From Abditibacterium sp. (lineage in GTDB: Bacteria; Armatimonadota; Abditibacteriia; Abditibacteriales; Abditibacteriaceae), in contig OZ251992.1 of the NCBI GenBank assembly GCA_965246885.1, positions 64,001 to 128,000 of the forward strand: a stretch of 64,000 nt of DNA, read 5' to 3'. Made by a program: the position numbers and the translations under genes. Below the pieces are notes generated by a model. That model saw nothing but the letters and a program-made list of their open reading frames with translations, had not been told where the DNA came from and did no database searches. This document shows, piece by piece, positions 29,035 through 54,837 of this stretch (within the stretch, counting starts at the first letter, position 1; the number at the start of each line of letters is the position of its first letter).

Positions 29035-29064
29035 TGTTAGAAACAGTTGCGTCTTGGGCATACT
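29035..29064 (+). promoter_or_regulatory. Promoter-like motif TGTTAGAA-N16-CATACT, copy 2
   Basis: TGTTAGAA acagttgcgtcttggg CATACT, preceded by AAAATTTT, upstream of the regulator gene. Confidence 0.65.
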
Positions 29065-29121
29065 GTTTCTGTCCCCATCTGCCCCTTTTGCCCGGCAAAG
29101 CGGCGGGGAGGGGCGGACTTT

Positions 29122-30357
29122 ATGGCGACACGGCAAGAAATCGCGCACTCCAAAGCGGGCCTATCGGACGAACTCCGGGGCCACCGCGACGGCGGTTTGG
29201 CGCCGGGCGCGCCGCTCCCGTCGGTGCGCGAGTTGGCCGCGCGGCACGGCTTGTCCAAGCGCGCCGTCAACGACGAACTGCAACGTTTGGCCGACGCCGG
29301 GGTGCTTTACACCGTCCCGCGCGTGGGCACCTTCATCGCCTCACCAAAACAAGGCGCACCCGGCCCGACCAGCGATACCGTCGCCCTCTTGTCGGTTGCG
29401 CCCCTGCGAAGCGGCTCGAACGCGCGGGCGGACGGCTGGACGCACGCCATCGAAGACGGCGCCGCTAGCGCCATCCACGCCGGAGGGCAGCACGTGTTGT
29501 CCTTGCAACGCGACGGTTTTCTCGATGAAGTCGTCGGGCCGGGCGCGGTCGAACGCTTGGCCGCGCGCAACCTGAGCGGACTGGTCATCTCCGACATGAT
29601 CGGCGAGGAAGACCACCTGCATCGCCTCTTGACCGGCTTCGCCAAGATACGGGTTCCCGTCGTGGCCATCGGGGGACACGCGGCGTTTAAGGGCTGCGAC
29701 CGCGCCGTGTCCGACCACGAAGCGGGCGCTTACGCGCTCACGCGCTGGCTGTTAGGGCGCGGCAGAACGCGCATCGCCCAAGTCTGGAGTGCCCCCGCGA
29801 GCGGCTACTGGTTCCCGGCGCGCATGGCCGGATACGCGCGGGCCATGCGCGAGGCCGGGTTGGAAGCCGCCGCCCCGCTCATCGTGCCCGTGCGCGGACA
29901 CGCCGACCGCGCGCAGTTCGAGAGCGCCGCCGCGCAGTTCGAGAGCGCGCTCCGGGAAGGGGGCGCGGGTGTGGATGCCCTGCTCGTGGACACCGATGGT
30001 CACGTCCCATTCGTCGCGGCGGCGCTCCGGCGCATGGGAAGCGAGCCAAACCGCGACGTGCTGCTGGCGGGCTACGACAACTACTGGCAAATGATGGACG
30101 CGGGCGACTTAGAGCGCACCTTGCCGGTCGTGACCGTAGACAAAGGCAACTGGCAGTTGGGCGAAACCGCCGTCGCGCTCCTGTGGGAGCGCCTCGCCGG
30201 AGCCTTGCCCCGCGCGCCGCAAACCCGCGCCGTCGCGCCGCACTTAGTGGAAGTCGAAGCGCAACGCGCGCACCTCTGGCGCCACGCGCTACTGACCGTC
30301 GGGCCACCCACAATAGCCCACAATCAAGCAGGAGTTCCCGTCGCGCAAGCGGCGTAA
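29122..30357 (+). CDS. GntR-HTH / LacI-type sugar-sensing transcriptional regulator
   Basis: PGAPLPSVRELAARHGLSKRAV...VPRVGTFI HTH; SDHEAGAY, LLGRGRTRIA and DVLLAGYDN sensor-domain motifs. Confidence 0.88.
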   Translation: MATRQEIAHSKAGLSDELRGHRDGGLAPGAPLPSVRELAARHGLSKRAVNDELQRLADAGVLYTVPRVGTFIASPKQGAPGPTSDTVALLSVAPLRSGSNARADGWTHAIEDGAASAIHAGGQHVLSLQRDGFLDEVVGPGAVERLAARNLSGLVISDMIGEEDHLHRLLTGFAKIRVPVVAIGGHAAFKGCDRAVSDHEAGAYALTRWLLGRGRTRIAQVWSAPASGYWFPARMAGYARAMREAGLEAAAPLIVPVRGHADRAQFESAAAQFESALREGGAGVDALLVDTDGHVPFVAAALRRMGSEPNRDVLLAGYDNYWQMMDAGDLERTLPVVTVDKGNWQLGETAVALLWERLAGALPRAPQTRAVAPHLVEVEAQRAHLWRHALLTVGPPTIAHNQAGVPVAQAA

Positions 30358-30411
30358 ACTTAGTGTCGGGGTTCCGATACAACCGCCGGAAGTTCCGGTA
30401 AGAACAACACC

Positions 30412-31188
30412 ATGAATCACAAACTTCGCTTCGAGACAATGGGCAAGAAGGGGTCTGCATTTACCCTTATAGAATTATTGGTAGTCATCGCTATCATCGC
30501 CATCCTTGCTGCTATCTTATTCCCGGCCTTTGCCCGCGCCCGCGAAAACGCCCGCCGCGCCTCGTGCCAGAGCAACCTCAAGCAAATCGGACTGGGCTTC
30601 GCCCAGTATACGCAGGACTACGACGAGACCTACCCGCTCAGCAGAACGGGACAACTCAACGTTCCGTCCAACAGACACGACGCATGGTGGGACGTGTTGC
30701 AGCCCTACCTGAAAAGCACGCAAATCTTCCAGTGCCCCAGCGACCCCAACAACGCGGGAATGCCCAACGACAATTTCAAGTCCCAAACCGCCGCGCCGTT
30801 GGAGCGCCCGAACATTTGGTCGAGCTACGTCGGCAACGTTTATATGCTCGCCATCGACAACAACCCGTTGGCCATCGCAAGTGTCGCCAGCACCGCCACG
30901 ACCATCATCGTTTCCGATGGCGCGACTCAAATCAACGCCACCGCGCCCTTCGTTACTCCCACCTCGCCTGCTAAAACCGTCCAATGCCCTTGGCTCGTCG
31001 CCGACCCCGGCAATGCCACCCAGTTGGGCTTTATGGACAGCGGCGACAACAACTGGGGCGGCCCCAGCGTGCGCCACTTGGAAACGGGCAACGTCCTGTT
31101 TGCCGATGGCCACGTCAAGGCGCTGCGCGCCGAGAAGTGGTTCTACGCCAACACCCCTTGGCTCGACCCGACTAAGGGCGGTAGCTAA
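30412..31188 (+). CDS. DUF1559 prepilin-type / H-X9-DG protein
   Basis: [23 protein letters not shown]...SCQSNLKQ...CPSD...[14 protein letters not shown]. Confidence 0.92.
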
Positions 31189-31302
31189 GGCGAAGCGCCT
31201 TTCGGAAGTGGTGCGGCCCGAACAGGAGCCGCGCCCTCCCTTCCGAAGAGTTCTTGCCGCCGCCTCGACCTCAAAGCGGCGGCACTATTTACAGGAGGAA
31301 TC

Positions 31303-32058
31303 ATGTCGGCTTTGCACAGTGGAAACGGGCGTTTGGGTTTCACGTTGCTGGAATTGCTCATCGTCATTGCCATCATCGCCTTGCTCGCGGCGATTCTGTT
31401 CCCGGCCTTTGCTCCGGCGCGCGAAAACGCGCGGCGGGCGGCTTGCCAATCAAACCTCAAGCAGTTGGGCTTGGGCTTCGCGCAATACACGCAGGACTAC
31501 GACGAGCGCTTGCCCGGTTACGTCGTTAGCCACACTGATGGGAGCCAATCGTGGAAGCGCGTGCTTTTTCCCTACGTCAAGTCAACGCAAGTCTATAGTT
31601 GCCCGTCCAACAAGTTCGGCCAAAGTCCGTCGGGCGACAGTCCGCCCTACGTTACAATCCCCACCGGTCAGCCCGTCTTCGATGTTTCCTACCTCGCCAA
31701 CGCTTCGGTGCCGGGCGCTGGAGGCACCACACCGATGCGCTCCGCCGACCTCGCCGTCAATATCGCGGCCATCACCAACTCTTCCTCCACCATTCTCCTC
31801 ACCGAAGGCACATGGGGCGGCTGCGACATTTCGTTCAACTACTCGCCCTTTGTTTTCGCCGACCAAGTTGTGACGCAGCACAGCGAGTTTCGCGGCCACA
31901 ATGGGCGCGTCAATTTCCTGTTCGCCGATGGCCATGTCAAGTCGCTCAAACCCACCGCGACGGCTTCGCCCGTCAATATGTGGACAATAGACGGCGCGGG
32001 CGCGAGCGATCCCACCTTGACCGCGCTGATGGCTAAATGGGAGGAGTTCCTGCGCTAA
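31303..32058 (+). CDS. DUF1559 prepilin-type / H-X9-DG protein
   Basis: [23 protein letters not shown]...ACQSNLKQ...CPS...[22 protein letters not shown]. Confidence 0.92.
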
Positions 32059-32074
32059 TCTGCTCTATCCACAA

Positions 32075-32204
32075 ACGTCCGCCGCGCGACGGGGGGAGGA
32101 ATTCGTCCCATGATTTCCTCCCCGCACGCCATAAACTCCTCCCCGCGTCCCATGATTACCTCCCCGCACGGGATGATTTCCTCCCCCCGTCGCGCGGCGG
32201 ACGT
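32075..32204. repeat. 21-bp tandem array C enclosed by a perfect 27-bp inverted repeat
   Basis: Arms at 32075-32101 and 32178-32204; units cccatgatttcctccccgcac / gccataaactcctccccgcgt / cccatgattacctccccgcac / gggatgatttcctccccccgt. Confidence 0.88.
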
Positions 32205-32337
32205 CCCTGACGGGACGACGGACGGAATTATCCTCGCGCGGGGAGGCGCGCAAGGCGCGATTTCCACCGCCCTTCGCCTGAACTTCGCGCCCCTTGAAAT
32301 AGTCTCAGCAAGCAAAGAAAGAAACTTCTCTGTTTGC

Positions 32338-32367
32338 TGTTAGAAACCCTGCCATTTTTGGCAGACT
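32338..32367 (+). promoter_or_regulatory. Promoter-like motif TGTTAGAA-N16-CAGACT, copy 3
   Basis: TGTTAGAA accctgccatttttgg CAGACT upstream of the third tandem DUF1559 gene. Confidence 0.6.
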
Positions 32368-32451
32368 ACACCTGTATCCACTTGAAGGCCCTCGATTCCC
32401 GTCGCTTCCGCATAGGGAAGATAAAGGCAACCCATCAAGCTCTCAATCATC

Positions 32452-33195
32452 ATGAAATACATCGTTTTAACCGATACCCGGAAAGCCGTTAAGGGATTCA
32501 CCCTTATAGAATTGTTGGTAGTTATTGCTATCATCGCCATCCTTGCCGCCATCTTGTTCCCGGCTTTCGCCCGCGCAAGAGAAAATGCCCGCCGCGCTTC
32601 TTGCCAATCCAACCTGAAACAAATCGGCTTGGGCTTTGTGCAATATGTGCAGGACTACGACGAGAAGTACCCGCCGTTTGGCCCCGCCTCCTACGCCGAG
32701 CCGAACGTTTGGACGGAGACGCAGCCCTACATCAAGAGCGCGCAGGTCTTGGTGTGCCCTTCGGACTCGACCACGACGAACTACCCGACCTTGAAGCTCA
32801 GCACCATCTCGTATTTCCCAAATTACTTGGTAACGGGGCAAGCTTGCGACTTCAGCACTAATGCCTCATGCGCCACCACCGTTGGCTACTACCCGATATC
32901 GCTCAGCACTATTGTTAACAGCGCTCAGACCCTGCTGGTCGCCGAGAATCGTGCGAATGACAACCCACGCTCTATGGAGGCGGGTAACGTAGATTCCTAC
33001 TACTTCAACCAAGCCACTTACGGGACTTCTTACGCTCTTGGGCCGTATCGCCACTTCGACGGCGCCAACTACCTCATGTGCGACGGCCACGTCAAATGGC
33101 TCCGCCCCAGCGCCGTCAGCAGTGGTGGCCCGACGACCAATTACGCTGGTACCGCTGTTTCCGGCAAAGCCATCTGGATGGATCCGACCAAATAA
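32452..33195 (+). CDS. DUF1559 prepilin-type / H-X9-DG protein
   Basis: [23 protein letters not shown]...SCQSNLKQ...CPSD...[14 protein letters not shown]. Confidence 0.92.
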
Positions 33196-33243
33196 TCGGG
33201 ATTGAGCAACGCCTGTCCACAGGGGTTGGCCCGCACGCAGCAC

Positions 33244-33283
33244 AAAGTGGTCTCGCTTCCTCCGAAGTGGGGCCGCTTTTTTT
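33244..33283 (+). terminator. G-U-rich hairpin plus U tract after the DUF1559 gene
   Basis: AAAGTGGTCTCGCTTC-loop-GAAGTGGGGCCGCTTT TTTT; the stem closes fully only with G-U pairs on the plus strand. Confidence 0.65.
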
Positions 33284-33361
33284 GGGCGGTGTGTATATTT
33301 CTGCGCAAGCGATAAAACAGCGCGCCCCTTCGGGCGCACGGGAGTGTCCAAGCCAACGACC

Positions 33362-34108
33362 ATGTTTTTAACGCAACAGGATGTTTTGAATTACGAGCGC
33401 GACGGGTTCGTGCTGGTGCCGGACGTGTTTTCCGGGCGCGAAGTGGAACTGATGATCCGCGAAATCGAGGGCGGCGCGCGCGTGCGTGAGACGCGGCACG
33501 ATATGGCCGACGCTTCCGGCAAGAAGGCGGGGCTGGCCATTTGGAACGATTTGGGCGACGATTTGTGGGCGGCGGCTTCGACGCATCCACGCATCGTCAA
33601 CTCTGTGCGCATCCTTATGGGCGAGGAGATCGCCTTCTTTCACGGCAAGGTCATGCTCAAGGAAGCCAACAGTGGTGGCGCGTGGGAGTGGCACCAAGAC
33701 TACGGCTACTGGTATAACGAGGGCTTCCTGTTTCCGCGCATGCTCAGCGCCTTTGTCGCCGTTGACCGCGCGACCAAGGAGAACGGCTGCTTGCAGGTGC
33801 TTCGCGGCAGCCACAAGCTGGGGCGCCTCAATCACGGTCAGGTCGGCAACCAAGCCGGGGCGGACGCGAAGCGCATCGAGGAGTTGGAGCGCCGCTTGGA
33901 GCGCTTGCACGTCGAAATGGCGCCCGGCTCCGTCTTGTTCTTCGATTGCAACCTGCTCCACACCTCGGCCTCCAACAACAGCCCACACCCGCGCCGCTCC
34001 TTTATCGTGTGCTACAACGCCCTCGCTAACCCGTGTCTGAGCGGTCATCACCGCTTCGAGACGCCCTGCCCGGTCGCGTCCGATGACGCCATTTTGAAGT
34101 TCGCGTAA
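33362..34108 (+). CDS. Phytanoyl-CoA dioxygenase (PhyH/EctD-like) Fe(II)/2OG dioxygenase
   Basis: WHQDYGYW, ENGCLQVLRGSHK, LLHTS.SN.S..PRR. Confidence 0.88.
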   Translation: MFLTQQDVLNYERDGFVLVPDVFSGREVELMIREIEGGARVRETRHDMADASGKKAGLAIWNDLGDDLWAAASTHPRIVNSVRILMGEEIAFFHGKVMLKEANSGGAWEWHQDYGYWYNEGFLFPRMLSAFVAVDRATKENGCLQVLRGSHKLGRLNHGQVGNQAGADAKRIEELERRLERLHVEMAPGSVLFFDCNLLHTSASNNSPHPRRSFIVCYNALANPCLSGHHRFETPCPVASDDAILKFA

Positions 34109-34126
34109 CCCCCCGCCCCTTGTTCC

Positions 34127-37100
34127 ATGCATAAACTCTTGCTCCCCGCGCTGGGCACCGCCCTGCTGTGCCCTTTTGCCGTTGCTGACCCGCTCCCCCC
34201 CGTCGGGCAGTGGGACGGCGTCACCTCATCCGCCAAGTTGGATGTTCCCTACGAAAACCCCATGCAAGTCGGGCCGCCCTTTGGCATCGTGTCGTTTTTC
34301 AACCACCCTTGGCGCTATTATATGGACACGTGGCCCGCGACGCGCTTCCTCGAAACCCCCGGCGCCAACTGGAACGTAGACCCAAAATACGCCGACTCGT
34401 TGGGGCAGATACTCGACGAAAGCGGCCTGCGCACCGTCCGCGTCGAGATCGGGTGGGGCAACATGGGCTGGGACGACGACTTGCCGCAAGACCGGAAAGC
34501 CCAAATCGCCGCGCAACTCAAGGCGCTGCAAAAGCACCACATCCGCCCGATGATTCTGCTCAACTGCCATCACGGTGGCCCCGGCCCGATGCGCCAGTTC
34601 GACGTTTCCGTCGCCGCCGACGCCAAGAAAGGCGACCGCACCCTCAAGCTGCGCCCCGAAGACACCGCCAAGATTCACGTCGGTTACACCGGCCCAATGA
34701 ACCCCGATTACATCGCCGCCGACCCGCTCATCACGAGCGTGGACGCCGATGGCACCTGCCACCTTTCGGCGGGGCTGGGCGGCGACGTCAAGGCCGGGAA
34801 GTTTTCGCTGTTTGAACTCAAGTATCGCCCCTTTCAGGGCGTGAAACTCAAGGGTGGGAGCGAAGCCGACAACGCCCGCGTCGCGGGGGAAGCGCACGCG
34901 ACGGCGGATGGTTGGGCGCGCTACGCGGCGTCGGTGGGCAAGTTCGCGCGCGAAACGCTCGGCACGCCGACCGATTCCGGCTTCGACATCGAGGTGTGGA
35001 ACGAGCAGACTTTCGGCGCCAATTTCCTCAACATCAACAACTACTACGACGAGAAGCTCGACTTTTCCGAGCCGCTTTCCTACACCAAGACGCGCGCCCT
35101 CACGCCCGATATGCGCCCCGACGCGCAGACGCAGTTCAAGTCCGAGGGCGCTTACGTGATCCTCCCGATGACCATTGACTACTTCAACGACCCGGCGAAC
35201 GGCTTCCACAATGTCAAGGTGGTGTCCGGCTTTGCCAACCAGTGGCCTTGGGATTCGGGAACGACGTTGTGGAATGGGCAGACCGGCTTTTCGCGGCACT
35301 ACTACACCGGCTACTATCAAGATGTCAAAGCGGACGGATCGCCCATCTCGCAAGTGGGCGCCGGGGCAATTGACGCGCTTGGCGGCTTCGACGGCACGCA
35401 TGACAACAAGGACTGGCACACCATCCTCCCCGGCACGAAATACATTCCGCCGCCCTTTCGCATCGGCATGCCGGAGTTCATGCACACCGGCTTCAAGACC
35501 GAGAGTTTGACGCGCGACGTGTTTCCCGACTCGCGCTTTTCGGGCATGGGCGGGCACGGGCGCTACACGCACAACGGCGACTTTCGCCCCGCCGAACTGT
35601 GGCAGACCGAGGTCAACTACGCCCGCGCGCCTTGGAGCGACGAGTTGGCCCAAGCCGCAGGCGTCAAAGAAGACGACCCGCGCTTTCTTGCCCTGATGGG
35701 ACGTATGGCGGGCAAGACGCTCTTTCGCCAGTACTTCTTCCACAACCACAAGGGCCTCACGCGCATCTACATGTTCGCGCTTTCGCCTGCGATGAACAAC
35801 TTCGGGATGTTCCCGCCCGCGTTCTACGACGCCATAGACAAAGCGGGCAACAAAATCACCCCCGCCGTGCGCGCCGCAGAACCCCCGGAATGGAAGGGGA
35901 TGACATGGATTACCCGGCAGATAGAAACCGGGAGTCAGCCCGACATCCAACCTGCGCCGCGCCCGCTCCGCGTGGACGGGATAGTCGAATACAAGCCGCG
36001 CCTCGTCTTTGCGGGCGATGGCACGCCGCGCCACCCGCACCAGTGGAACCGCGACTGGTTCGCGTTCCTGCCCTACCAACTGGCGGCGAACAAGTTCCTC
36101 ATTCCGTATTACGTCGCCACGCTCGACATGACGCACTCGTATGATGCGAAAAAGAACCCCCTCGACCCGGCGCGCTACGATATGCCCGACCAAGAGTTCG
36201 AGGTGACGATTGGCAACTGCGCGGGCAAGGGCGCCAAAGTGTCGGCGTATGACCCGCTTTCCAACGCCGCCGTCCCCGTCCAAGTCGTCTCCTCGACGCC
36301 TGCCACCCTCACCGTTCGCCTCAAAACGGTGGACTATCCGCGCGTCTTGATGGTCGAAGAGGCGAAGGTCGGGCCGCAGATACTCGACCCGAAAGTCGTG
36401 ACGGACGGCGCGGGCAAGCTGACCGTGAGTTGGAAAACCAACGTGCCCGTCAACGCCGCCAAAGTGACTTACGGCAAAGACTGGATGAACCGCTCCGCCC
36501 AAGAAATAGTGCTAAAGGGCGGCGCGAACGCTTACTCCATCAACATCCCGACCGGACAAAAGGGCATCTTGGCGGCGCGCATCAAGGTGACGACCAACGG
36601 CCTGAGCGACGTGTGGCCGCGCTGGGACGAAGACCCACAAGGTCAAGTCGTCGTTCCCGGCTCCACCAAAGACGACGTGAAAGCCGCCCCACCCGCGCCG
36701 CCCAGAGCGACGGGGACGCTGGCCGCCGTCGCGCTTACGATGCCCGCCGGAGCGAAGTTGCCGCTTCTCGAAGCTAACGCCGCGCGCGGCTATCGCTTCC
36801 GTCTGCCGGAAGGCGCTGTCTTGACGGGCGTCCCCGATGACCGCGAGGGCGCCCTCGGCCAAGGCGCGAACGCCGTCCGTTTGCGCGTGCGCTACCTCCC
36901 CGGCGCGGCATCGGCGGCGAACCAATACCTGCCCGTCGCGTCGGCCATTGACGCCTCCTCGCTTATGCCCGTTACCTTGTCCGACCACACCGCCGCGACG
37001 CTTGCGACCTTCGACCTCGCCGACGCCGCGCATCCCGGCATGACCAATCTGGGCCAACGCTTCCTCCTCATCCCGACCGGCAAAGACAACGGCGACCTGC

Positions 37101-37201
37101 TTCTCCTGTCCGCGAGCGGCACGCCCCAAGCGGTCAAAGCCAACGACGCGCTTATAAAAGCCGTCTTTGCGAGCGTCACACTCGACGCACCCAAAGGCTG
37201 A
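34127..37201 (+). CDS. Large secreted protein, putative clan GH-A glycoside hydrolase
   Basis: Signal peptide; RVEIGWG, IEVWNEQ and LWQTEVN motifs. Confidence 0.6.
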   Translation: MHKLLLPALGTALLCPFAVADPLPPVGQWDGVTSSAKLDVPYENPMQVGPPFGIVSFFNHPWRYYMDTWPATRFLETPGANWNVDPKYADSLGQILDESGLRTVRVEIGWGNMGWDDDLPQDRKAQIAAQLKALQKHHIRPMILLNCHHGGPGPMRQFDVSVAADAKKGDRTLKLRPEDTAKIHVGYTGPMNPDYIAADPLITSVDADGTCHLSAGLGGDVKAGKFSLFELKYRPFQGVKLKGGSEADNARVAGEAHATADGWARYAASVGKFARETLGTPTDSGFDIEVWNEQTFGANFLNINNYYDEKLDFSEPLSYTKTRALTPDMRPDAQTQFKSEGAYVILPMTIDYFNDPANGFHNVKVVSGFANQWPWDSGTTLWNGQTGFSRHYYTGYYQDVKADGSPISQVGAGAIDALGGFDGTHDNKDWHTILPGTKYIPPPFRIGMPEFMHTGFKTESLTRDVFPDSRFSGMGGHGRYTHNGDFRPAELWQTEVNYARAPWSDELAQAAGVKEDDPRFLALMGRMAGKTLFRQYFFHNHKGLTRIYMFALSPAMNNFGMFPPAFYDAIDKAGNKITPAVRAAEPPEWKGMTWITRQIETGSQPDIQPAPRPLRVDGIVEYKPRLVFAGDGTPRHPHQWNRDWFAFLPYQLAANKFLIPYYVATLDMTHSYDAKKNPLDPARYDMPDQEFEVTIGNCAGKGAKVSAYDPLSNAAVPVQVVSSTPATLTVRLKTVDYPRVLMVEEAKVGPQILDPKVVTDGAGKLTVSWKTNVPVNAAKVTYGKDWMNRSAQEIVLKGGANAYSINIPTGQKGILAARIKVTTNGLSDVWPRWDEDPQGQVVVPGSTKDDVKAAPPAPPRATGTLAAVALTMPAGAKLPLLEANAARGYRFRLPEGAVLTGVPDDREGALGQGANAVRLRVRYLPGAASAANQYLPVASAIDASSLMPVTLSDHTAATLATFDLADAAHPGMTNLGQRFLLIPTGKDNGDLLLLSASGTPQAVKANDALIKAVFASVTLDAPKG

Positions 37202-44005: not shown

Positions 44006-44038
44006 GGGAACCCGCCGCGCGGCGCCGCTTGCCGATGG

Positions 44039-44073
44039 AGCGGCGTCGCGCGGTCTGCGCGCGACGCCGCTTT
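44039..44073. terminator. Hairpin at the convergence point of two operons
   Basis: AGCGGCGTCGCGCG-GTCTG-CGCGCGACGCCGCT TT. Confidence 0.65.
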
Positions 44074-46230: not shown

Positions 46231-47241
46231 TTAAAGTTGCGAGAAGTCGAAGACCACGCCCATTGCTTCGGCGCGGCGCGTCATCAGCAGGTCGTACGCT
46301 TCGCGCGCTTGCAAGGGCGAGAAGCGGTGGGTGATGAGCGGCTCGACGTTCATCTGCCCGCGCTCCAAGAAAGAGAAGAACAGTTGCACCATGTGCGGCT
46401 TCGTCCACCACTCGCGGTCGGTGGCAACGAGCGGCGGGTAGCCATCGTGCGCGCCCACGATGGACACGCCGCGAATCATCACGTCCGATGACAGACGTTG
46501 CTCGGACGGCGTGCCCGTATCGCCGAGCAGAAGTAACTTCCCGAACCTACGCGCCAAGCCCAAAGCGGGCGAGAACACGGCGGCGTGCCCGGTCACGTCA
46601 TAGACCACATCGGCCATGCGCCCGCCTGTGATGCGCTCGACCTCGGTGCGGGCGCTGGCTACATCGCCTTGAAAAACGTGCGTGGCGCCGTGCGCGCGCG
46701 CCATCTCCAAGCGGGCGGGTGCAGTATCAATGGCGATGATGTGGCCCGCACCGAAGGTGCGCAGATACTGTACGACCAACTGGCCGAGTAGCCCTAAACC
46801 GATAACGACGACGGTGTCGCCCAACACATGCTCCGCGCGGCGCACGCCGTTCTGGACGATGGTGGCCAAGCCGAACCACGTCGCCGCTTCGTCAGACACG
46901 CCATCGGGGATAAGGATCGCCTCGCTCGCGTCATGCACGAAGAACTGGCGATGATGCCACCGGCACGCGACGCGGTCGCCGATCTTGAGGGTTTCGACAC
47001 CCTCGCCGACTTCCAACACGCGCCCCGCGTTGCTGTAGCCGGGATAGAACGGGTATTTCACCCAATCCTCCCAGTTCGTGCCCGACTCGAACAAGCGCCC
47101 CAAACAGATGCACTCGGTTCCGGTGCTAATCAGGGTGCGCGCGGTTTGGACAAGAATTTGTCCCTTGCCAAGTGGCGCGACGGGTTCTTGGCGCACTTCG
47201 ATGGCGTCTTTGCCGGTGAAAACGATGTTGTGTGATTGCAT
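46231..47241 (-). CDS. MDR-family (zinc-binding type) dehydrogenase
   Basis: LISTGTE, PGYSNAG, GLGLLGQ, LITHRF. Confidence 0.88.
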   Translation of the reverse strand: MQSHNIVFTGKDAIEVRQEPVAPLGKGQILVQTARTLISTGTECICLGRLFESGTNWEDWVKYPFYPGYSNAGRVLEVGEGVETLKIGDRVACRWHHRQFFVHDASEAILIPDGVSDEAATWFGLATIVQNGVRRAEHVLGDTVVVIGLGLLGQLVVQYLRTFGAGHIIAIDTAPARLEMARAHGATHVFQGDVASARTEVERITGGRMADVVYDVTGHAAVFSPALGLARRFGKLLLLGDTGTPSEQRLSSDVMIRGVSIVGAHDGYPPLVATDREWWTKPHMVQLFFSFLERGQMNVEPLITHRFSPLQAREAYDLLMTRRAEAMGVVFDFSQL

Positions 47242-47262: not shown

Positions 47263-48690
47263 TCAGACGAAGCGGAAGTCGGGTGTGGCGCCGCTTGCGA
47301 GGGTTTCGTCCACGACGCGCCACATGTCGTCCTGAACGCCGCGCGCAGTGTAAAGGCCGAGCAAGGAGAATACGAGAGTCGTGTCGGCGGGCTTGCGCTC
47401 GCGGCGGATGGACGTGCGCGCCCCCCAGTCGCGGTAAACGGCGGCGAGCTTCTTTTCCTTGCCGTTGTGAGTCCAGATGCCGCCGTGATTGGAAATGTCG
47501 TTGGCGAGGGGCATGTCGAAGGTCGGCCAGTTGATGAAGCCGTTCACGTGCGGCGCGAGCGCGTCCATCAGTTGCGCGGAGTAAAAGGCGTGTTCCTCTT
47601 CGGAGCGAAAGGGCAAGTCGTTCAAAAAGCGCGACTCGCCGCCGCCATACCAGCCCCACTCTTGCAAGACGACGGGCTTGCCATAGAACTCCAAGCGGCT
47701 CATGCCGATGCAGCAGTTGCGCCAAAAGCGCCACTTCGGGCCGTCCTGCGCTACGTCGTCGAGCGGGTCGCGGTTGTATTCGGGCAAGCATTGCAACGCG
47801 GGATACGGGTGGTGGGAAATGAAGTCGAACAGGTCGTGAACGGCGCGGTTGTGAAAGCCGTTGGCCAGCCAGAGGTCTTGGTCGGGCGACAGCCACGTGT
47901 TGTTGCCCGAACACACCATGTGCCCCGGCGCGGCGGCGCGAATGACTTCGCACTGCGCTTTGCACCACGCATAGCCGCGCTCGTTGAGGTAGTGCCGCAC
48001 GTCGTTCGCGCGGGCGTCGAAGGGCGCTTCCTCGAAGTGAATCGAAGCGGGCACCTCCTCGAAACTCCCGTAGGACGCGCCGCCGTAGACGCGGTTCATG
48101 GTAGCGGCGTCGCCGTAGCGGGCGCGCAAAAAGGCGGGCCAGCCGTCCAAAAGCATGGCCCCGACGCGCGCCGCATCGGGCGAGCCGGGCGCGACCATGT
48201 GCTGAACGTCGTCGTAAAGTAGCTCGTTGCGCAAGTCCCACGCCCAAATCGCCGGATGCCCCGCGTAGTGCGCGCAAAAAGCCGCCCAGAACGCGCAGCT
48301 TTCGTCGAGGGCGCGCCCGCTATCGGCCAGCCGCTCGACATCGAACCAGTCGTTGCCGCCGATGTAGCCGCCAACGGGCATCAGATAGATGCCGTGCTTT
48401 TGCGCGAGGGCGATGAAGGTATCCCAGTTGTGCAGCCCGTCGGCGCGCATTCCGCCGCCGCCTTGCGCGTCGAAGACCTCGTTGACGCCGATGGCTTGGC
48501 GCAAACAGTTGAGGCCCAGTTCGCTCATCAACCCCAAGCGGCGGTCGCAGTCGGAAGCGTCGAAGTTTTGAAAAAGCGTGCCCTGACCGGGATGCTGGTC
48601 GTCGAGGATGTTGCCGCCGAGCGGCGAGATGAAGGCACCGTCGGAGGTTTGGAAGTTCCACCGGTCGGGCGCAACGCGGATGGGCTTCAT
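47263..48690 (-). CDS. GH5/GH42-like glycoside hydrolase
   Basis: GLNCLR, HPAIWAWDLRNE, DFISHHPYP, KPVVLQEWG. Confidence 0.75.
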   Translation of the reverse strand: MKPIRVAPDRWNFQTSDGAFISPLGGNILDDQHPGQGTLFQNFDASDCDRRLGLMSELGLNCLRQAIGVNEVFDAQGGGGMRADGLHNWDTFIALAQKHGIYLMPVGGYIGGNDWFDVERLADSGRALDESCAFWAAFCAHYAGHPAIWAWDLRNELLYDDVQHMVAPGSPDAARVGAMLLDGWPAFLRARYGDAATMNRVYGGASYGSFEEVPASIHFEEAPFDARANDVRHYLNERGYAWCKAQCEVIRAAAPGHMVCSGNNTWLSPDQDLWLANGFHNRAVHDLFDFISHHPYPALQCLPEYNRDPLDDVAQDGPKWRFWRNCCIGMSRLEFYGKPVVLQEWGWYGGGESRFLNDLPFRSEEEHAFYSAQLMDALAPHVNGFINWPTFDMPLANDISNHGGIWTHNGKEKKLAAVYRDWGARTSIRRERKPADTTLVFSLLGLYTARGVQDDMWRVVDETLASGATPDFRFV

Positions 48691-49691
48691 CCTCGGCTCC
48701 CCCGAAGCGCTGCGAAGTCGCGGAGCATCGCCACTTCGCGCGGGTTGAGCGCGCCGTCGCCCATCGGCCCGACGTTTTGGAAAAAGCTCGTGCCCAAGAT
48801 GCTGCACCGCTCGAAGTCGTCGAGTAGCCCCCCGCCCGTGCGGTAATCGTCGCGGTCGGGCTGCCAACTCCAGCCGTTTTGCGTCGCCGTCATCCACGCC
48901 ATCAAGGGCAAGTCGCCGATTTGCTCGGAGTTGAAGCCCTGCGTGTTCTGCCCCGGCAGGTCTATCTCCCATACCTGATAATCCTCGCCCGCGAGCGGCA
49001 GGACGTGGTGGTTATTGGTAATCATCGCGTCGGGTTGCAAGCCGTGTATCAGGTCGTATAGCTGCGTGAGCGGCCACCTGTTCTCGGTTTCGACATCGGT
49101 CTGCCCCTCGCTCGCTTTGGCGGCGGGCCACCAGCCATCGAACAAAAAGCCCGCGACCGGCCCGTAATTGCGGCAGAGTTCCTCGACCTGCGCCAAAAAG
49201 AACGCGCAAAAAGCCTCCCAATCGCGCGGTGGCGCGAACTCCACGCCGCCCCCGTCCGGGTGATTCCAGTCGAGAAGCGAAAAGTAAAAGTGCAAGGCCA
49301 CATCGCGCTCGTGGCAGGCACTCGCCAAATCCGCGACCAAGTCGCGCCCGACCGCCGCGCGCGTGCTTTTGAAGTCGGTGTTCGCCGAATCGAACAAGCA
49401 GAAGCCGTCGTGGTGTTTGGTCGTCACCATAAACGCCGTCGCACCCGCCTCGCAAAACGTGTCGAGCCACTCGCCCGCATCGAAGCGCGGCGCCGCGAAC
49501 CGCTCCATGCGCGCCGCGTATTGCTCGCGCGGAATCATCTCCAAGCGCCGCAACCACTCCTTCGAGCCATCGAGCGAATACAGACCCCAATGAACACTCG
49601 CGCCGAATTGGTCGCGCGCGAAGCGTTCATACGCGCGCGGCGTGGCTTGCAACTGGGCTTGCGAGGCCCATGCGTAAGGGGAAATTTGCAT
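48687..49691 (-). CDS. Alpha-L-fucosidase (GH29)
   Basis: VHWGLYS, TTKHHDGFCLF, YFSLLDW, LFDGWW, NVGP. Confidence 0.9.
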   Translation of the reverse strand: MQISPYAWASQAQLQATPRAYERFARDQFGASVHWGLYSLDGSKEWLRRLEMIPREQYAARMERFAAPRFDAGEWLDTFCEAGATAFMVTTKHHDGFCLFDSANTDFKSTRAAVGRDLVADLASACHERDVALHFYFSLLDWNHPDGGGVEFAPPRDWEAFCAFFLAQVEELCRNYGPVAGFLFDGWWPAAKASEGQTDVETENRWPLTQLYDLIHGLQPDAMITNNHHVLPLAGEDYQVWEIDLPGQNTQGFNSEQIGDLPLMAWMTATQNGWSWQPDRDDYRTGGGLLDDFERCSILGTSFFQNVGPMGDGALNPREVAMLRDFAALRGSRG

Positions 49692-49702
49692 TGTGGTGTT
49701 CA

Positions 49703-49797
49703 AGCGACTGAAGTCGCAGTCAGCAGAAACGTCGGCCTTCGCCGACAAAGCACGTCAACGAAGGTTGACGATTCCGCTGGCTGCGACTTCAGTCGCT
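49703..49797. repeat. REPIN-like inverted doublet, family 1 copy R4
   Basis: AGCGACTGAAGTCGCAGTCAGC...GTCGGCCTTCGCCGAC...GTCAACGAAGGTTGAC...GCTGGCTGCGACTTCAGTCGCT. Confidence 0.88.
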
Positions 49798-49804
49798 CAA
49801 TGTT

Positions 49805-50839
49805 TTACACCGCCACCGACGGCACATCCACTGGCTTGCCCGATTCGATGGACTCGTTCATGGCGATAACCGTTGCGAGCGAGCGCGCAGCATCGGAATA
49901 CGGCGAGCGCATGGTGGAATAGTCGCCGCTCCGCACCGCCTCCAAAAAGGCGACCATTTCGGCGTAGTGGTGCGAGGCGCCTTCGGGCATAGCCACCATC
50001 TGTTCGTCTATTTTCTGTTCGCCGATGTTGCCGTGCAGCCGCTCGTCTAAGTCCAAGTTGAGGCGGAAATCCTCGCCAATGAAGGACACGGCGACGCTCA
50101 TGTCGTCCGCCGCCCACGAGTGCAAGTGCGCGCCCGACGCGCCCGACGCGAAGCGCAGGTTGGTCGAGGAGGACTCTTCGATGGTAAAGTCGGCGCTTTT
50201 CTGGCGGCGGATGTTGTTGCCGTAGGTGTGCACCTGCGTGATGTCGCCCGCGAAGAAGCGGATCAGGTCAATGGAGTGGATGGCTTGGTCAAGGATATGC
50301 CCGCCCGACCGCTCCTTGAGCAAGAACCAAGGCGGCATCGTCCATTTCGTGGTGAGCGGGCACAAAAACGCGCTTTGCACGAGGTGGATGGTGCGGCCCG
50401 CGAGCAACTCGCGCAAGCGGTTGACAATCGGGAACCAGCGATACATGAAGCCCACAACAACCGGCACGCCGCCGTGCGTGGCGATGGCGTTAATGGCGCG
50501 CGCATCCTCCAAGGAAAAAGCGGGCGGCTTCTCGACGAAGACGGGGAGCGCGCGCCCGTTGCGCTGGCCAAAGTCCGCCGCGCCTTGCACGACTTCGCGC
50601 CGCGCCAAGGGCGGGGTGCAGGAGATGATGGCTTCCAATTCCGGCTCGGCTTCGAGCATGGCGGACACGCTCGTGTAAAAGCGCGCGCCAATTGCGTCGG
50701 CCATCGCGCGGTGCGCCTCGTTCATGTCGCACATGGCGACCACTTGGTTGCCGCCCATCATTTGCAGGTTCTGGGCGTGGGCCTTATAGATGCCCCCGAC
50801 GCCGATGGCGCCGACTTTGACGGTGTGGTTGTTGTTCAT
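49805..50839 (-). CDS. Gfo/Idh/MocA family oxidoreductase
   Basis: GAIGVGGI, VFVEKP, VGFMYRW, GGHILDQAIHSID. Confidence 0.9.
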   Translation of the reverse strand: MNNNHTVKVGAIGVGGIYKAHAQNLQMMGGNQVVAMCDMNEAHRAMADAIGARFYTSVSAMLEAEPELEAIISCTPPLARREVVQGAADFGQRNGRALPVFVEKPPAFSLEDARAINAIATHGGVPVVVGFMYRWFPIVNRLRELLAGRTIHLVQSAFLCPLTTKWTMPPWFLLKERSGGHILDQAIHSIDLIRFFAGDITQVHTYGNNIRRQKSADFTIEESSSTNLRFASGASGAHLHSWAADDMSVAVSFIGEDFRLNLDLDERLHGNIGEQKIDEQMVAMPEGASHHYAEMVAFLEAVRSGDYSTMRSPYSDAARSLATVIAMNESIESGKPVDVPSVAV

Positions 50840-50860
50840 AGCGTTGGAAATTCTACCGGT

Positions 50861-51784
50861 TTAAGCGAAGCGGCCCGCGTCAAAGCGGCGCACGCCGCGC
50901 ACCATCAGGCCCTGCTGGTTTTCTTTGCGCGCGGTTGCGGCGCTCTTTTCGGCTTCGGCGCGGTCTTTGGCGGTGGCGGCGCCGACGGTTACATAGTCGT
51001 CCGCCGCGCGGTAGCGGTGGATGACGACGGGGCGGGCCTGCGTCCCGAAGTTTTCCTTCGAGCCGTGAATGGTCTTGACGTGGAACACGATGGCGTCGCC
51101 CGCCGCGCCTTTGATGGGAAGCGCCGCTTCCCAAGGCCACTCGTCTTCATCCAATCCCAAGTGCGAGAAGGTGTCTATGTGGCGGAGTTGCCCCTTTAGG
51201 TGTGAGCCGGGCACGACATGGAGCGCGCCGTTGACGAGATCCGTGTCCACCACGTAATTGAGGAACGCGACCGGCCCTTGGAAGCGATGCTCGAAGTAGG
51301 CAGAATCTTGGTGCAGGTGCTTGGGATGCCCACCGACCGGCTCTTTATACAAGCACTGGCCGTAGTCGGACAGTTCGATGTCGGGGCCAAGAATCGCTTC
51401 GACGAAGTCCAGCTTGGCCGCGTCGAGCGCCGATTGGAGGAACGTGGCGCTCGTGCGATAGGAATAAGGCAGCGTCATCAGTTGTTGCTCGCGCTCGAAA
51501 TTGGGCGGCGCGGGCAGAAACAGCGTGCCGTCGGGCGTGTGCCAGCCCAACTCGCTCCTGGTCGCTTGCGGCAGGAGGGAAATGGCGGTTTGCGCCACCT
51601 CTTCGACTTCCGCGCGCACGGTCGAAAGGTAGGGCGTGAACAGCCCGCGCACGACGAGGCAGCCCTGCGCGCGGAAAATCGCTGCCGCGCGCTCGATACC
51701 CGCCGGGTTGCCGAGGTCGCTCGCGGCGATCTCGATGTCGGCGACGGAAACCGTCGGCGCGGCAAATGTGGTGTGTGAGTCCAT
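50861..51784 (-). CDS. PhyH-family Fe(II)/2OG dioxygenase
   Basis: LHQDSAYF, NGALHVVPGSH, TIHGSKEN. Confidence 0.88.
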   Translation of the reverse strand: MDSHTTFAAPTVSVADIEIAASDLGNPAGIERAAAIFRAQGCLVVRGLFTPYLSTVRAEVEEVAQTAISLLPQATRSELGWHTPDGTLFLPAPPNFEREQQLMTLPYSYRTSATFLQSALDAAKLDFVEAILGPDIELSDYGQCLYKEPVGGHPKHLHQDSAYFEHRFQGPVAFLNYVVDTDLVNGALHVVPGSHLKGQLRHIDTFSHLGLDEDEWPWEAALPIKGAAGDAIVFHVKTIHGSKENFGTQARPVVIHRYRAADDYVTVGAATAKDRAEAEKSAATARKENQQGLMVRGVRRFDAGRFA

Positions 51785-51793
51785 GAGTAGTCC

Positions 51794-52783
51794 TTAGGCC
51801 CAACGAATCAGCGCGGCGCCCAACGATGGGTCGCGCGCAAGCAAACGAGCATACAAACTTACCACCCCATCGGGCGCGATGCGCTCGGTGATGAACGGGG
51901 CGACCGTCAGTTTGCCCTCGCTCATCAGCGCTAGGATGGGGCGCAAGTCGCCCCATGCACAAGGAAACAGAAGCGTGAGTTGCTTCGAGTGCGCGGCGAT
52001 AAAGCCGAAGCGCACCTCGCCGGGGTAGTGCCCTTGCAACACCACGCGCGCCCGGTTCGCCGCCAACCCAAGCGACGCATCAAGAACGCGCGTATTGCCC
52101 GAACACTCGATGACCACGCTCGCCCCATCGGGATGATCGGCGCGCAAACGCTCGTCGAGCGCGGCGACATCGCCCGCGACGGCGACATCGGCGGAGAACT
52201 GCTCCGCCAAGCGCGCGCGTTCGGCGTTGAGGTCGCACGCGAAGACTTTGGCGCCGCGCGCGCGGCAAATCTGCGCCGCCAATTGCCCCACTATCCCTAA
52301 TCCTACGACGGCGACAACATCGGCCCCGGTCACTTGCGCGCGCTCGACGCCCTGATTCGAGACGGCGCCGAGCCACGAATACGCCGCCTCGTCGTCGCTC
52401 ACCCCATCGGGAACGCGCACCAACTCCTCTTGCGCGAAGTCGCCCGTCACCGACACGATGGGGTGCGACTGGTGCCCGTTGCCCGACCCTTGCCCGTAAC
52501 CATCGGGCTGAAACAAGGACAATCCCGAACACACCCGCTCGCCGACGCGGTAGTTGTCTACCCCCGGCCCCACTTCGGCGACGCGCCCCACGCCCATGTA
52601 ACCCAACAGCGCGGGAAAGGTGCAGCCGTGCAACTGGCCCGACACGACGAGATACTCCGTTCCCACGCTGACTGCCGTGAGCGTGTTGGCGACGCGCACT
52701 TCACCCGCTTCGAGGGAGCGCGTCTCGAAGGAGCGCACTTCGGCGGCGCCCGATGGCGCAATGATGATGGCGGAAGTCTTCAT
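51794..52783 (-). CDS. MDR-family (zinc-binding type) dehydrogenase
   Basis: VSVGTE, LGYMGVG, GLGIVGQ. Confidence 0.85.
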   Translation of the reverse strand: MKTSAIIIAPSGAAEVRSFETRSLEAGEVRVANTLTAVSVGTEYLVVSGQLHGCTFPALLGYMGVGRVAEVGPGVDNYRVGERVCSGLSLFQPDGYGQGSGNGHQSHPIVSVTGDFAQEELVRVPDGVSDDEAAYSWLGAVSNQGVERAQVTGADVVAVVGLGIVGQLAAQICRARGAKVFACDLNAERARLAEQFSADVAVAGDVAALDERLRADHPDGASVVIECSGNTRVLDASLGLAANRARVVLQGHYPGEVRFGFIAAHSKQLTLLFPCAWGDLRPILALMSEGKLTVAPFITERIAPDGVVSLYARLLARDPSLGAALIRWA

Positions 52784-52786
52784 AAA

Positions 52787-53752
52787 TTAGCCCGCGAGCG
52801 CTGTCCAACGATTCGGATAGGGGATGTGGTTCGCCTCGCGGTAGCGGTTGCGCAGCGCGGCAAAGTCGGCGGCGGTGCGCGTTTCCCGTTCGGGATGCGC
52901 GCTTGAGCGCACCACGAAGTCCGCTTCGGGCGGGTAACAGGCGATCTCGACGCCCTCGGCATCAGGTGTATACTCGTCGGGCGTTCGCCCGACGTTGTTG
53001 GGCACCTCGGCGCTTTGGTAGCGCAGGTCGAGGCTCCAGCGAACCTCTTGCGAGGCGTTCTCCTTCGAGCAGTGCGGCGTCAGGTTCGTCATCAGCAGCA
53101 CGTCGCCCGCTTTCATCTCGACCGGAAGAGCGCCCTCGAAGCTCATCTCCTCGTCGGGAATGACCAAATACCCCGCCTTGCCGCCCGCGTAATGACGCGC
53201 GACGCCGCTCTTGTGCGAGTTGGGCAACACCCACATACAGCCGTTGTGGAGCGTCGCGTCCACGAGCGGCACCCAACACGTCACGATGAGTTGGCTGTCG
53301 CAGTGCGGCTCGAAGTAACCGGAATCTTGGTGCCACGCCACTTCGCCGTGCGCCCAGTTGGGCAACTTGGGCCGCACCCGATACACCGACGAGGCCACGA
53401 TCTCCGGCCCGACGAGCGACTCGATGCAGTCCAAAAGCGGCGGATGCGCGAGCATGGCGAACATTTCTGGCCCGTTGAAGCCCCCGCCCGCGCCGCGCAG
53501 CAGTTCCTTATGGTAAATCTCGCGGCCCGCTTCTTCCGACTCTTCCATGATGCATGCCAAGCGGCGCTCAAACGGCTCGTCCGCGAAGGTGTTCGGCAGC
53601 AGCCCCTCGGCGTGCAAACGCGCGGCGGCCTTGTCCACGATGTCCGCCAGCGCGCCGCGAATCAAACCGAGGGCGTCCCCATCGAACACGCCCTCTTTCA
53701 CAACCCAGCCTTCGAGCCGGAACCGCTCGACTTCTTGATGCGACAGATTCAT
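52787..53752 (-). CDS. PhyH-family Fe(II)/2OG dioxygenase
   Basis: WHQDSGYF, NGCMWVLPNSH, TPHCS.EN...VRWSLDLRYQ. Confidence 0.88.
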   Translation of the reverse strand: MNLSHQEVERFRLEGWVVKEGVFDGDALGLIRGALADIVDKAAARLHAEGLLPNTFADEPFERRLACIMEESEEAGREIYHKELLRGAGGGFNGPEMFAMLAHPPLLDCIESLVGPEIVASSVYRVRPKLPNWAHGEVAWHQDSGYFEPHCDSQLIVTCWVPLVDATLHNGCMWVLPNSHKSGVARHYAGGKAGYLVIPDEEMSFEGALPVEMKAGDVLLMTNLTPHCSKENASQEVRWSLDLRYQSAEVPNNVGRTPDEYTPDAEGVEIACYPPEADFVVRSSAHPERETRTAADFAALRNRYREANHIPYPNRWTALAG

Positions 53753-53871
53753 GGTTTCTTCCGCTTCTGCTCCCCTGCCCCTGCGAAGCAGGGGCGCAGT
53801 GTAACAGTGCATATGGGTGTCTACTACTCCATTATTCCCCTAAGATGCCGCCTCTTGGCCCTACAACACAA

Positions 53872-53910
53872 AAACACGCGGCGCCCCGTCGAATTGGGCG
53901 CCGCGTGTTT
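53872..53910. terminator. Hairpin terminator after the minus-strand DUF1559 gene
   Basis: AAACACGCGGCGCCC-loop-GGGCGCCGCGTGTTT with A/T tracts on both sides. Confidence 0.75.
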
Positions 53911-53997
53911 CTTTTGCTGTTTTGACTGGATGCCACCTTGAGGGGCCGTTACGCCGCCTGCTCGCTGGTGCAGCGAATAGTGGCGTCAGAGCCGCCT

Positions 53998-54742
53998 TTA
54001 CTGGGGGAACGGAGAAGAATAAGCGCATTGGGCGCTGCCAGTGGCGTCCACAGAGTAGCCCGTCAGATTGGGATATGGGCCGCCCGCTTTGCCTTTTTGC
54101 GCTTTGACGTGACCGTCGGTGTAAAGCATATTGGTGGTTTCCAAATGCCGGTAAGCCAAGCTCGGCCCCAAGTCAGGCGTGTCGACATAGGACTGCCACG
54201 TGGCGTTAATAAAACCGGTTTGATCGCGCTCAACGACCATAACTGTCAAGGCAGTCGCGGGAATTTCTGCCAAAGCGCGAGGGACAGATGCTCCCGGATA
54301 AAAGCCGAAGACTTGATTGACAGCAGAATAAGAACGTGTTGCATTGGCCCCATAAAGCGGGTGCGTCACGCGTAGCGAGGCAGTATCGCTGGGGCATACG
54401 ATGAGTTGCGCACTCTTGAGATAGGGTTGCGTTACTGTGTCCCACGTCGCCCGCACCGGGCCGGTGCCGGAATTGTCGTATCCCATGTCCGCGCCGGGGA
54501 ACCGCTCGTCGTAGTCTTGCGTGTATTGCAGGATGCCCAAACCAATTTGCTTGAGGTTGCTTTGGCAGGAGGCGCGGCGCGCATTTTCCCTCGCGCGGGC
54601 GAAAGCGGGGAACAGGATCGCGGCGAGAATGGCGATGACTACCAATAATTCTATTAAGGTAAATCCGAAACGGCCTTTGGCAGAATGTTGATGAACGAAC
54701 AGGATGTTTGGTGTCGGTAATTCCGACTGTCTCTTAATGCAT
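53998..54742 (-). CDS. DUF1559 prepilin-type / H-X9-DG protein with a damaged 5' end
   Basis: [20 protein letters not shown]...SCQSNLKQ...[14 protein letters not shown]; no in-frame canonical start before FTLIE; the ATG at 54742 (after GAGG) is one base out of frame. Confidence 0.8.
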
Positions 54743-54807
54743 TGTTCCTCGTTCTTTCCTCCGCTGAGGAAACGGCGGCGCAGGCTGCGCGGAATAAGGA
54801 CGCCTTT

Positions 54808-54837
54808 ATTATACCCAGAGAATACCCCTGTCTAACA
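54808..54837 (-). promoter_or_regulatory. Promoter-like motif TGTTAGAC-N16-TATAAT, copy 4
   Basis: Minus strand TGTTAGAC aggggtattctctggg TATAAT, preceded by an A/T tract. Confidence 0.7.

Follow-up and report, generated by a model that had tools for sequence, protein, structure and literature searches.

Three loci in a 64,000-nucleotide stretch of DNA from Abditibacterium sp. (Armatimonadota), C1:64001-128000 of the source genome and hereafter the window, combine genes for DUF1559 proteins with regulator and glycan-enzyme genes. Two of them converge as a plus arm (29122-44005) and a minus arm (44072-54738), and the third lies at 8078-13529 (Table 1). Structure models predict a type IV pilin fold for DUF1559 proteins; across the family the assembly helix is almost constant and the head varies. 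From head relationships and gene context we further show that the heads appear to fall into clades, each tied to a single nutrient signal, namely cobalamin, thiamine pyrophosphate (TPP), nickel, or LacI/GntR regulators together with glycan enzymes. We consider it likely that the family is a ligand-specific component of uptake. We also lean, with less confidence, towards the three window loci being glycan-utilisation operons in which the DUF1559 pilin serves as receptor and uptake runs through a shared pilus, with glycan captured by the window's own pilins. The pilin-headed layout is real and non-random and, if the uptake inference holds, represents a new form of type IV filament-based uptake.

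All five DUF1559 genes of the window match PF07596 (50-59 bits, cut-off 23.3) and carry the class III signal of TIGR02532, in keeping with the prepilin cleavage/methylation motif named in an earlier model-made reading of this DNA (the first-pass annotation). The H-X9-DG profile TIGR04294 scored above its cut-off in four of them, and a pattern search located the motif in the fifth. The source genome (3.56 Mb in two contigs, 92.7% complete) was annotated with our own gene model, giving 2980 genes with approximate start positions; PF07596 matches 62 places in it and our own family profile 65, with 56 canonical copies in 46 loci. Glu5 (E5) is present in 56/56 canonical copies, the -1 residue is Ala (37) or Gly (19), and identity is 80% over the first 60 residues and 25% over the remainder. 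The invariant E5 and the 80%-identical helix point to selection for filament assembly. DUF1559 genes occur in 61/61 genomes of the phylum, and a candidate major pilin is encoded by a short tandem pair at C1:143783/144675 (143756-145328), whose copies are 99% identical and rank among those closest to ribosomal genes in codon use.

Structure prediction, one of the checks proposed in the first-pass annotation, returned a type IV pilin fold for window pilin 1 (predicted local distance difference test score, pLDDT, 89) and for a second pilin (pLDDT 91). The pilin 1 model aligned with Thermus PilA4 over residues 16-244 (Z 5.9, root-mean-square deviation 3.3, 117 residues aligned), with EpsG at Z 4.8 and with ComP at Z 4.5 (5hz7; 4.5-4.6 over both models). 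The top 24 rows for pilin 1, including the pseudopilins EpsG and PulG, and the top 19 rows for the second model were all pilins or pseudopilins, and no periplasmic-binding-protein fold stood among the structural matches listed for either.

We then compared the neighbourhoods of the 46 source-genome loci with expectations from 2000 random placements. A GntR/LacI-sensor regulator adjoins 15 loci (0.9 expected), and 19 of the genome's 27 regulators of this type have a pilin no more than two genes away; in three other genomes, G046, G022 and G026, a pilin directly follows the regulator in 8/13, 9/19 and 8/14 cases, respectively, with fewer than 0.2 expected. Large signal-peptide proteins adjoin 13 loci (3.7 expected; signal-peptide and helix counts are heuristic) and PhyH genes adjoin 4 (0.6 expected). 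Glycan-degrading domains or carbohydrate-binding modules (CBMs) were found in 22/134 pilin neighbours within two genes versus 3/114 control genes (p = 2.3e-4), after omission of 47 of 181 neighbours (regulators, PhyH, AraC, short or window genes) and with 114 of 136 controls counted. The genome-wide adjacency to regulators and the enrichment of carbohydrate-active enzymes (CAZymes), both put forward as checks in the first-pass annotation, with the enzyme count as the one that could overturn its reading, are thus present. Proteins with at least six helices were not significantly depleted beside DUF1559 genes (8/46 loci, 10.5 expected), and we rejected transporter depletion as a statistical signal.

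The link to nutrients is most direct at riboswitches. The only cobalamin riboswitch match of the source genome (C1:3011030-3012122) directly precedes a DUF1559 pilin, and across 60 genomes, related and hence non-independent, the next gene downstream is a pilin for 49/82 such matches, and for 53/82 a pilin lies within 4.2 kb downstream, some loci having a flank of only 1.5 kb. Per genome, the riboswitch was accompanied by a pilin only in 47, by a TonB-dependent receptor (TBDR) only in 10, by neither in 3 and by both in 0, on the best 34 candidates scored for each genome; of the 84 TBDR rows, 56 were checked by script and the remaining 28 by eye, none of these lying within 3 kb downstream. Within the genus, btuB stands behind the cobalamin riboswitch in 10/12 relatives, and deeper scoring of 13 genomes gave 6 with btuB only, 3 with pilin only and 4 with both. 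We therefore rejected the idea that btuB and the B12 pilin strictly exclude each other; because the two coexist in 4/13 genomes, they are alternatives rather than mutually exclusive. In a quick, midpoint-rooted head tree, made without a one-clade test, 51/52 B12-pilin heads group in a single clade (support 97), which contains the source-genome copy but none of its 55 paralogues, and the named top matches of the B12-head profile are Armatimonadota or 'bacterium'. One genome (G054) has the order riboswitch-pilin-BtuF-BtuD-BtuC, i.e. pilin-BtuF-ATPase-FecCD, and another (G008) has pilin-BtuF-CobU-CobT; gene identities at the vitamin loci come from hand-chosen genes, many others there having no match. 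The source genome itself has BtuF/C/D-like genes and no match to ThiC, ThiG, Thi4, ThiM, ThiE or BtuB queries.

The only TPP riboswitch match of the source genome (C1:851451-852399) likewise directly precedes a pilin, here a stand-alone DUF1559 gene. A pilin comes first after 22/56 TPP riboswitch matches, in 22/43 genomes, and most of the other matches precede thiamine synthesis genes (judged by eye, five confirmed). In the reverse direction, 20/20 loci picked from 80 found by TPP-head similarity alone have a TPP riboswitch upstream, and the order pilin-ThiN-SSF occurs in four genomes. Named relatives of the TPP-clade pilin and of the window pilin are Abditibacteriota/Abditibacterium. A TPP-clade pilin with its riboswitch was also seen in a genome labelled Trueperaceae, reflecting either transfer or mis-binning.

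For nickel, the source genome carries NikR followed by a His-rich DUF1559 pilin that is convergent with a NicO-family gene (C1:1946082-1949768). Relatives of this pilin occur in 30/250 other genomes at 41-74% identity; the His-rich motif is present in 22/25 loci of the clade, and NikR, NicO or HupE lies within 1.5 kb in at least 10/25 (14 neighbours profile-tested). Vitamin pilins often stand ahead of an inner-membrane carrier (BtuFCD, SSF) and nickel pilins beside NicO/HupE. Because these carriers stay in place, the pilin takes the position of an outer-membrane receptor and not that of a whole transporter. The first-pass annotation had set DUF1559 at the position of the binding/transport pair of classical polysaccharide utilisation loci (PULs); the receptor half of that comparison stands and the whole pair does not. 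Its further proposal of interchangeable substrate-capturing subunits is supported by the ligand-linked B12, TPP and nickel clades; the system is not specific to glycans.

A machine that such pilins could share is encoded elsewhere in the genome, as the first-pass annotation had anticipated. The cell is diderm, since LpxC, a lipid A enzyme, was found. One locus at C1:2.397-2.413 Mb carries PilB, PilT (by motif), PilC, an A24 prepilin peptidase and pilin-like genes, and a secretin at 1.139 Mb lies downstream of PilN/O-like genes (PilM/N/O assigned by gene order only). Two secretins are Tad-type, and three tandem secretin-domain genes without an adjacent ATPase (C1:2111654-2116287) are candidate gates for the pilin system. 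The TBDR family PF00593 has 0 matches in the source genome, and TBDRs number 0-6 per genome across 61 phylum genomes. Classical importers are present genome-wide, with 14 matches to PF00528, 2 to PF02653, 5 to PF01547, 13 to PF07690 (MFS) and 1 to PF00474 (SSF), none of them inside the three loci. As the first-pass annotation had stated, Pfam gave no ABC permease, MFS, TBDR or SusD match among the locus genes (SusD was not searched genome-wide). The genome also encodes six DUF6785-type multi-helix proteins, two of them at the distal ends of pilin loci (DUF6785+DUF6784 genes, C1:323499-325466 and 2473337-2475409), which at a guess are candidate inner-membrane sugar carriers. Elsewhere, the genome's only SSF carrier and a DUF485 gene, which we take to be an ActP-like pair, flank a DUF1559 gene (C1:1989368-1992332). 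At C1:2256538-2259059, a DUF1559 gene that may encode a phosphate-scavenging pilin precedes the gene for a metallophosphoesterase bearing a twin-arginine-like leader.

In the mechanism that we propose, a nutrient that is sensed or scarce would lead to production of the matching pilin, which the prepilin peptidase would cleave and which would join a shared retractable type IV filament as a minor subunit. Its head would bind the ligand, in the window loci a glycan or glycan fragments, and retraction through a secretin would bring the ligand into the periplasm. Co-encoded signal-peptide hydrolases would cut the glycan in the periplasm or at the surface, and separately encoded inner-membrane carriers (BtuFCD, SSF, NicO/HupE, possibly DUF6785 for sugars) would import the products. 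Cytoplasmic GH29, dehydrogenases and PhyH enzymes would then complete glycan breakdown, and the hairpin after the pilin gene could ensure that more pilin than enzyme is made. That Armatimonadota, and perhaps the Planctomycetes-Verrucomicrobia-Chlamydiae (PVC) bacteria, rely in this way on TonB-independent uptake, with one retractable filament, dozens of receptor pilins and passage through a secretin, is a tentative proposal to which we give somewhat less than even weight.

Type IV pilins sit in the inner membrane before assembly, and DUF1559 proteins might do their work there, as anchored ligand-binding proteins or in a short periplasmic pseudopilus that hands ligand to permeases, with porins or an idle secretin at the entry. 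The placement of pilins beside inner-membrane carriers, the failure to find a classical major pilin by motif, the Pfam name SBP_bac_10 and the phrase 'solute-binding family' in the accessible text of PMC2754498 would all fit. However, BtuF already stands beside the B12 pilin, which is thus not a missing periplasmic binding protein; the B12 pilin occupies the place where relatives have BtuB; the invariant E5 and conserved helix suit filament assembly; and the models predict a pilin fold, with no periplasmic-binding-protein fold among the structural matches listed for them. We regard an inner-membrane role as unlikely. It is more doubtful still that the glycan-locus pilins import nothing and act as adhesins on polysaccharide particles or as pseudopilins that secrete or display hydrolases. 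The excess of large signal-peptide neighbours, the EpsG and PulG matches, the several secretins of the genome and the glycan attachment mediated by the MUL2 pilus (PMC13174399) are consistent with such a function, which nevertheless leaves the B12, TPP and nickel clades unexplained, their operons holding carriers or salvage enzymes and not secreted hydrolases. Moreover, minus-arm enzymes mostly lack signal peptides, and the family of the secreted protein at 41039-44005 lacks a pilin in 35/37 metagenome loci. Least probable, in our assessment, is a role as ligand sensors or as cassettes for surface variation, the pilins simply sharing control with adjacent genes, as the many copies in housekeeping contexts and the fast divergence of the heads (25% identity) could suggest. 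Riboswitch control, conservation of head clades across many families and a place ahead of carriers fit uptake genes better. Vitamin riboswitches as a rule turn genes off when the vitamin is present, a mode of control that suits scavenging more than sensing.

Several observations weigh against uptake by a shared pilus. The PilN/PilO-like genes have no Pfam match, a motif search of the source genome found no short classical major pilin (PilA), and a TBDR could be missing from an assembly that is ~93% complete. The 0/60 overlap of btuB and pilin partly reflects the number of candidates scored per genome, and the genus counts include genomes with both. The Z-scores of the pilin models are middling, and Foldseek with the pilin model gave no match at E<=0.001. 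Within the source genome, 27/46 pilin loci have no regulator within three genes, and about half have neither a regulator nor a CAZyme nearby. Window pilin 1 has relatives in mixed gene surroundings, 9/29 loci showing a regulator within 1.5 kb, and the evidence for ligand-specific clades pertains to the vitamin and nickel pilins and not to the window's own. Of 37 metagenome loci of at least 9 kb (53 fetched) that hold the 41039 family, only 2 have a pilin in the flank, ruling out a fixed pairing with pilins, and the minus-arm pilin copy may be degenerate.

Planctomycetes are described with 68 DUF1559 paralogues, 2 of them essential, in the accessible text of PMC10632474, and the window pilins share with those proteins the PF07596 match and membership of a large paralogue family. 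As far as the available portions of PMC4807772, PMC10632474 and PMC2754498 go, function is given only as 'solute-binding' by name and the family is called PVC-restricted; here, in contrast, it is found throughout the Armatimonadota genomes searched, with a predicted pilin fold and nutrient-linked clades. The layout of regulator, substrate-specific envelope gene, and enzymes or carrier is that of Bacteroidota SusC/SusD PULs, and TPP riboswitch-pilin-ThiN-SSF mirrors the Bacteroidetes order OMthi-pnuT-tnr3 seen in the consulted part of PMC5613172. Unlike SusC/SusD or TBDR operons, however, these loci have no barrel or SusD, and a pilin of ~250 aa forms no channel itself and needs a shared machine. 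By gene content the window loci are not SusC/D or ABC PULs, yet they are PUL-like in layout.

Pilin-based systems offer further parallels. ComP is a low-abundance, ligand-binding minor pilin on a retractable type IV pilus and serves as a model for the proposed principle; Neisseria ComP is also among the top structural matches (5hz7, titled a DNA-binding/uptake pilin in the PDB), but it is a single DNA receptor, whereas ~60 paralogues with larger heads are linked here to vitamins, a metal and glycans. In Akkermansia, the type IV-like pilus MUL2 is tied to glycan attachment and periplasmic accumulation (PMC13174399; also reviewed in PMC12418764, as far as its accessible text shows). It is likewise a pilin-based, glycan-linked system in a diderm, but consists of a single conserved locus of four genes whose pilin is of archaeal type (MUL2A with MUL2B/PilM) and not of dozens of dispersed pilins; its gene order differs from that of the window loci, the comparison being one of gene order and not of homology. 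In planctomycetes, a phylum also rich in DUF1559, the available portion of PMC5394234 reports energy-dependent periplasmic uptake of dextran, bound to pili-like fibres of unidentified composition at crateriform structures, and leaves open how macromolecules cross the outer membrane. By analogy, we infer that DUF1559 proteins could be a component of these fibres. Our literature search, which did not extend to supplements and most subscription papers, found no description of pilin-headed nutrient loci.

DUF1559 ranks among the largest Armatimonadota and planctomycete families of unknown function, and these polysaccharide degraders have few TBDRs. The B12, thiamine and nickel pilins have predictable ligands, making the question of uptake directly testable. 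If the proposal is true, the pilins would constitute a general alternative to TonB-dependent receptors with the window loci as its PULs, and pilin clade together with regulator would indicate what orphan hydrolases, including those of the window, act on.

Table 1 Features of the three DUF1559 loci, in window coordinates (GH, glycoside hydrolase; HTH, helix-turn-helix)
Feature	Position	Strand	Evidence
D-2-hydroxyacid dehydrogenase	8078..9073	-	PF02826, 152 bits
812-aa secreted orphan, GH-A-like NE..E motif	9095..11533	-	no Pfam or PDB match
Hairpin downstream of third-locus pilin	11535..11560	-	
DUF1559/H-X9-DG prepilin	11574..12344	-	PF07596, family profiles
GntR-HTH + LacI-type sensor regulator	12381..13529	-	PF00392, PF13377
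GntR-HTH + LacI-type sugar-sensor regulator	29122..30357	+	PF00392, PF13377, PF00532
DUF1559/H-X9-DG prepilin 1, type IV pilin fold (predicted)	30412..31188	+	PF07596, PF07963, TIGR02532, TIGR04294
DUF1559/H-X9-DG prepilin 2	31303..32058	+	PF07596+PF07963
130-nt inverted repeat separating pilins 2 and 3, with 21-nt repeats inside it	32075..32204		-79 kcal/mol
DUF1559/H-X9-DG prepilin 3	32452..33195	+	PF07596+PF07963
Hairpin with U-tract between pilins and enzymes	33244..33283	+	hairpin itself 33244-33279
PhyH-family 2-oxoglutarate/Fe dioxygenase	33344..34108	+	PF05721, 126 bits
1024-aa signal-peptide protein	34127..37201	+	GH-A-like NE..E motifs only
1255-aa secreted protein, GH39-like catalytic part + NPCBM-associated domain	37226..40993	+	PF10633, NEP motif
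988-aa secreted clan GH-A-like protein, CBM9-like C-terminus	41039..44005	+	Atlas clusters, invariant residues
Two overlapping GC-rich hairpins where arms converge	44014..44071		inverted repeat 44039-44071; alternative hairpin 44014-44054
717-aa orphan protein	44072..46225	-	no family match
MDR-family dehydrogenase	46231..47241	-	PF00107
GH42/GH5-like hydrolase	47263..48690	-	PF02449 E=7e-8, PF00150 weak, NE..E motifs
GH29 alpha-L-fucosidase family	48687..49691	-	PF01120, 184 bits
Gfo/Idh/MocA oxidoreductase	49805..50839	-	PF01408, PF02894, PF22725
PhyH-family dioxygenase	50861..51784	-	PF05721
MDR-family dehydrogenase	51794..52783	-	PF00107
PhyH-family dioxygenase	52787..53752	-	PF05721
Long hairpin + U-rich tail downstream of minus-arm pilin	53864..53917	-	-39.6 kcal/mol
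DUF1559 prepilin heading minus arm	53998..54738	-	no in-frame ATG

Gene calls and Pfam matches reproduced the gene order that the first-pass annotation had given for both arms and the third locus. Hairpins lie downstream of each pilin block and at the convergence of the arms, where the inverted repeat it had pointed out is present alongside an overlapping alternative that also folds; a promoter/terminator scan gave no excess over shuffled sequence. The hairpin between the plus-arm pilins and enzymes is a putative terminator- or attenuator-like element. The first-pass description of two long converging operons holds for layout and convergence, but the plus arm may be two transcripts, because pilins 2 and 3 are set apart by a 394-bp gap holding the 130-nt inverted repeat. 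The start of the plus-arm regulator is that of our gene model, the longest open reading frame (ORF) beginning at 29047.

The large proteins described as GH-like in the first-pass annotation fared unevenly. The label suits the protein at 41039-44005 best, which is predicted to be clan GH-A-like from its conserved Asn-Glu-Pro and nucleophile Glu. We take the NE..E motif of clan GH-A to consist of an Asn-Glu-Pro acid/base and a nucleophile Glu, and used it to label this and other large proteins. N313, E314, P315, E404 and E406 are invariant across 37 sequences of the 41039 family, and the Atlas clusters matching the protein carry GH39, GH42 and CBM9, although the PDB sequence search gave no match. 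The family has 185 relatives at E<=1e-50, the named ones in Planctomycetota and Chthoniobacterales (Verrucomicrobiota). For the protein at 37226, the PDB sequence search gave a weak match to PslG (E=0.0016), and the protein at 34127, with motifs only, has no Pfam match at E<=0.01 and no NCBIfam or PDB sequence match. The label is not confirmed for the minus-arm protein at 44072-46225, with no Pfam (E<=0.01), NCBIfam or PDB match and no clear GH motif. The third-locus protein at 9095, annotated as GH plus CBM, shows a GH-A-like NE..E motif, with no Pfam match at E<=0.01; its best Atlas score is 0.81, with a GH30+CBM6 cluster at 0.79, and the CBM6-like tail is a possible lead only.

At the start of the minus-arm pilin, a ribosome-binding site is followed by an out-of-frame ATG at 54742 and an in-frame ATT at 54738, and the hydrophobic helix is 3 residues short. 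Contigs from two runs of one study, possibly of the source sample, are identical to the window at this point, and misassembly was rejected as an explanation for the unusual start.

Several further features were noted in the window. A 305-aa ORF (20429-21346, minus strand) fuses N- and C-terminal parts of the 41039-44005 family, with ~670 central residues missing, and looks like an internally deleted paralogue. Outside the three loci lie genes for an orphan SBP_bac_11 binding protein (14825-15922, plus), an ABC ATPase (1567-2322, minus) and an MlaE permease (17745-18536, plus), as well as a secreted sialate O-acetylesterase-family protein (PF03629; 18653-20386, minus). Two paralogous ~300-aa proteins are encoded on the minus strand at 27992-28957 and 63103-64008, the first of which was scanned and has no Pfam family; one of the pair is divergent from the plus-arm regulator. 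Palindromic repeats of ~100 nt, resembling repetitive extragenic palindromes or miniature inverted-repeat transposable elements, occur at 14833-14933, 15923-16024, 18536-18650 and 49703-49797, the last of them in the minus arm, where it separates the GH29 gene from the Gfo gene. Intergenic arrays of 21-nt imperfect repeats lie at 21490-21623, 32104-32187 and 55009-55137, two of them upstream of pilin genes.

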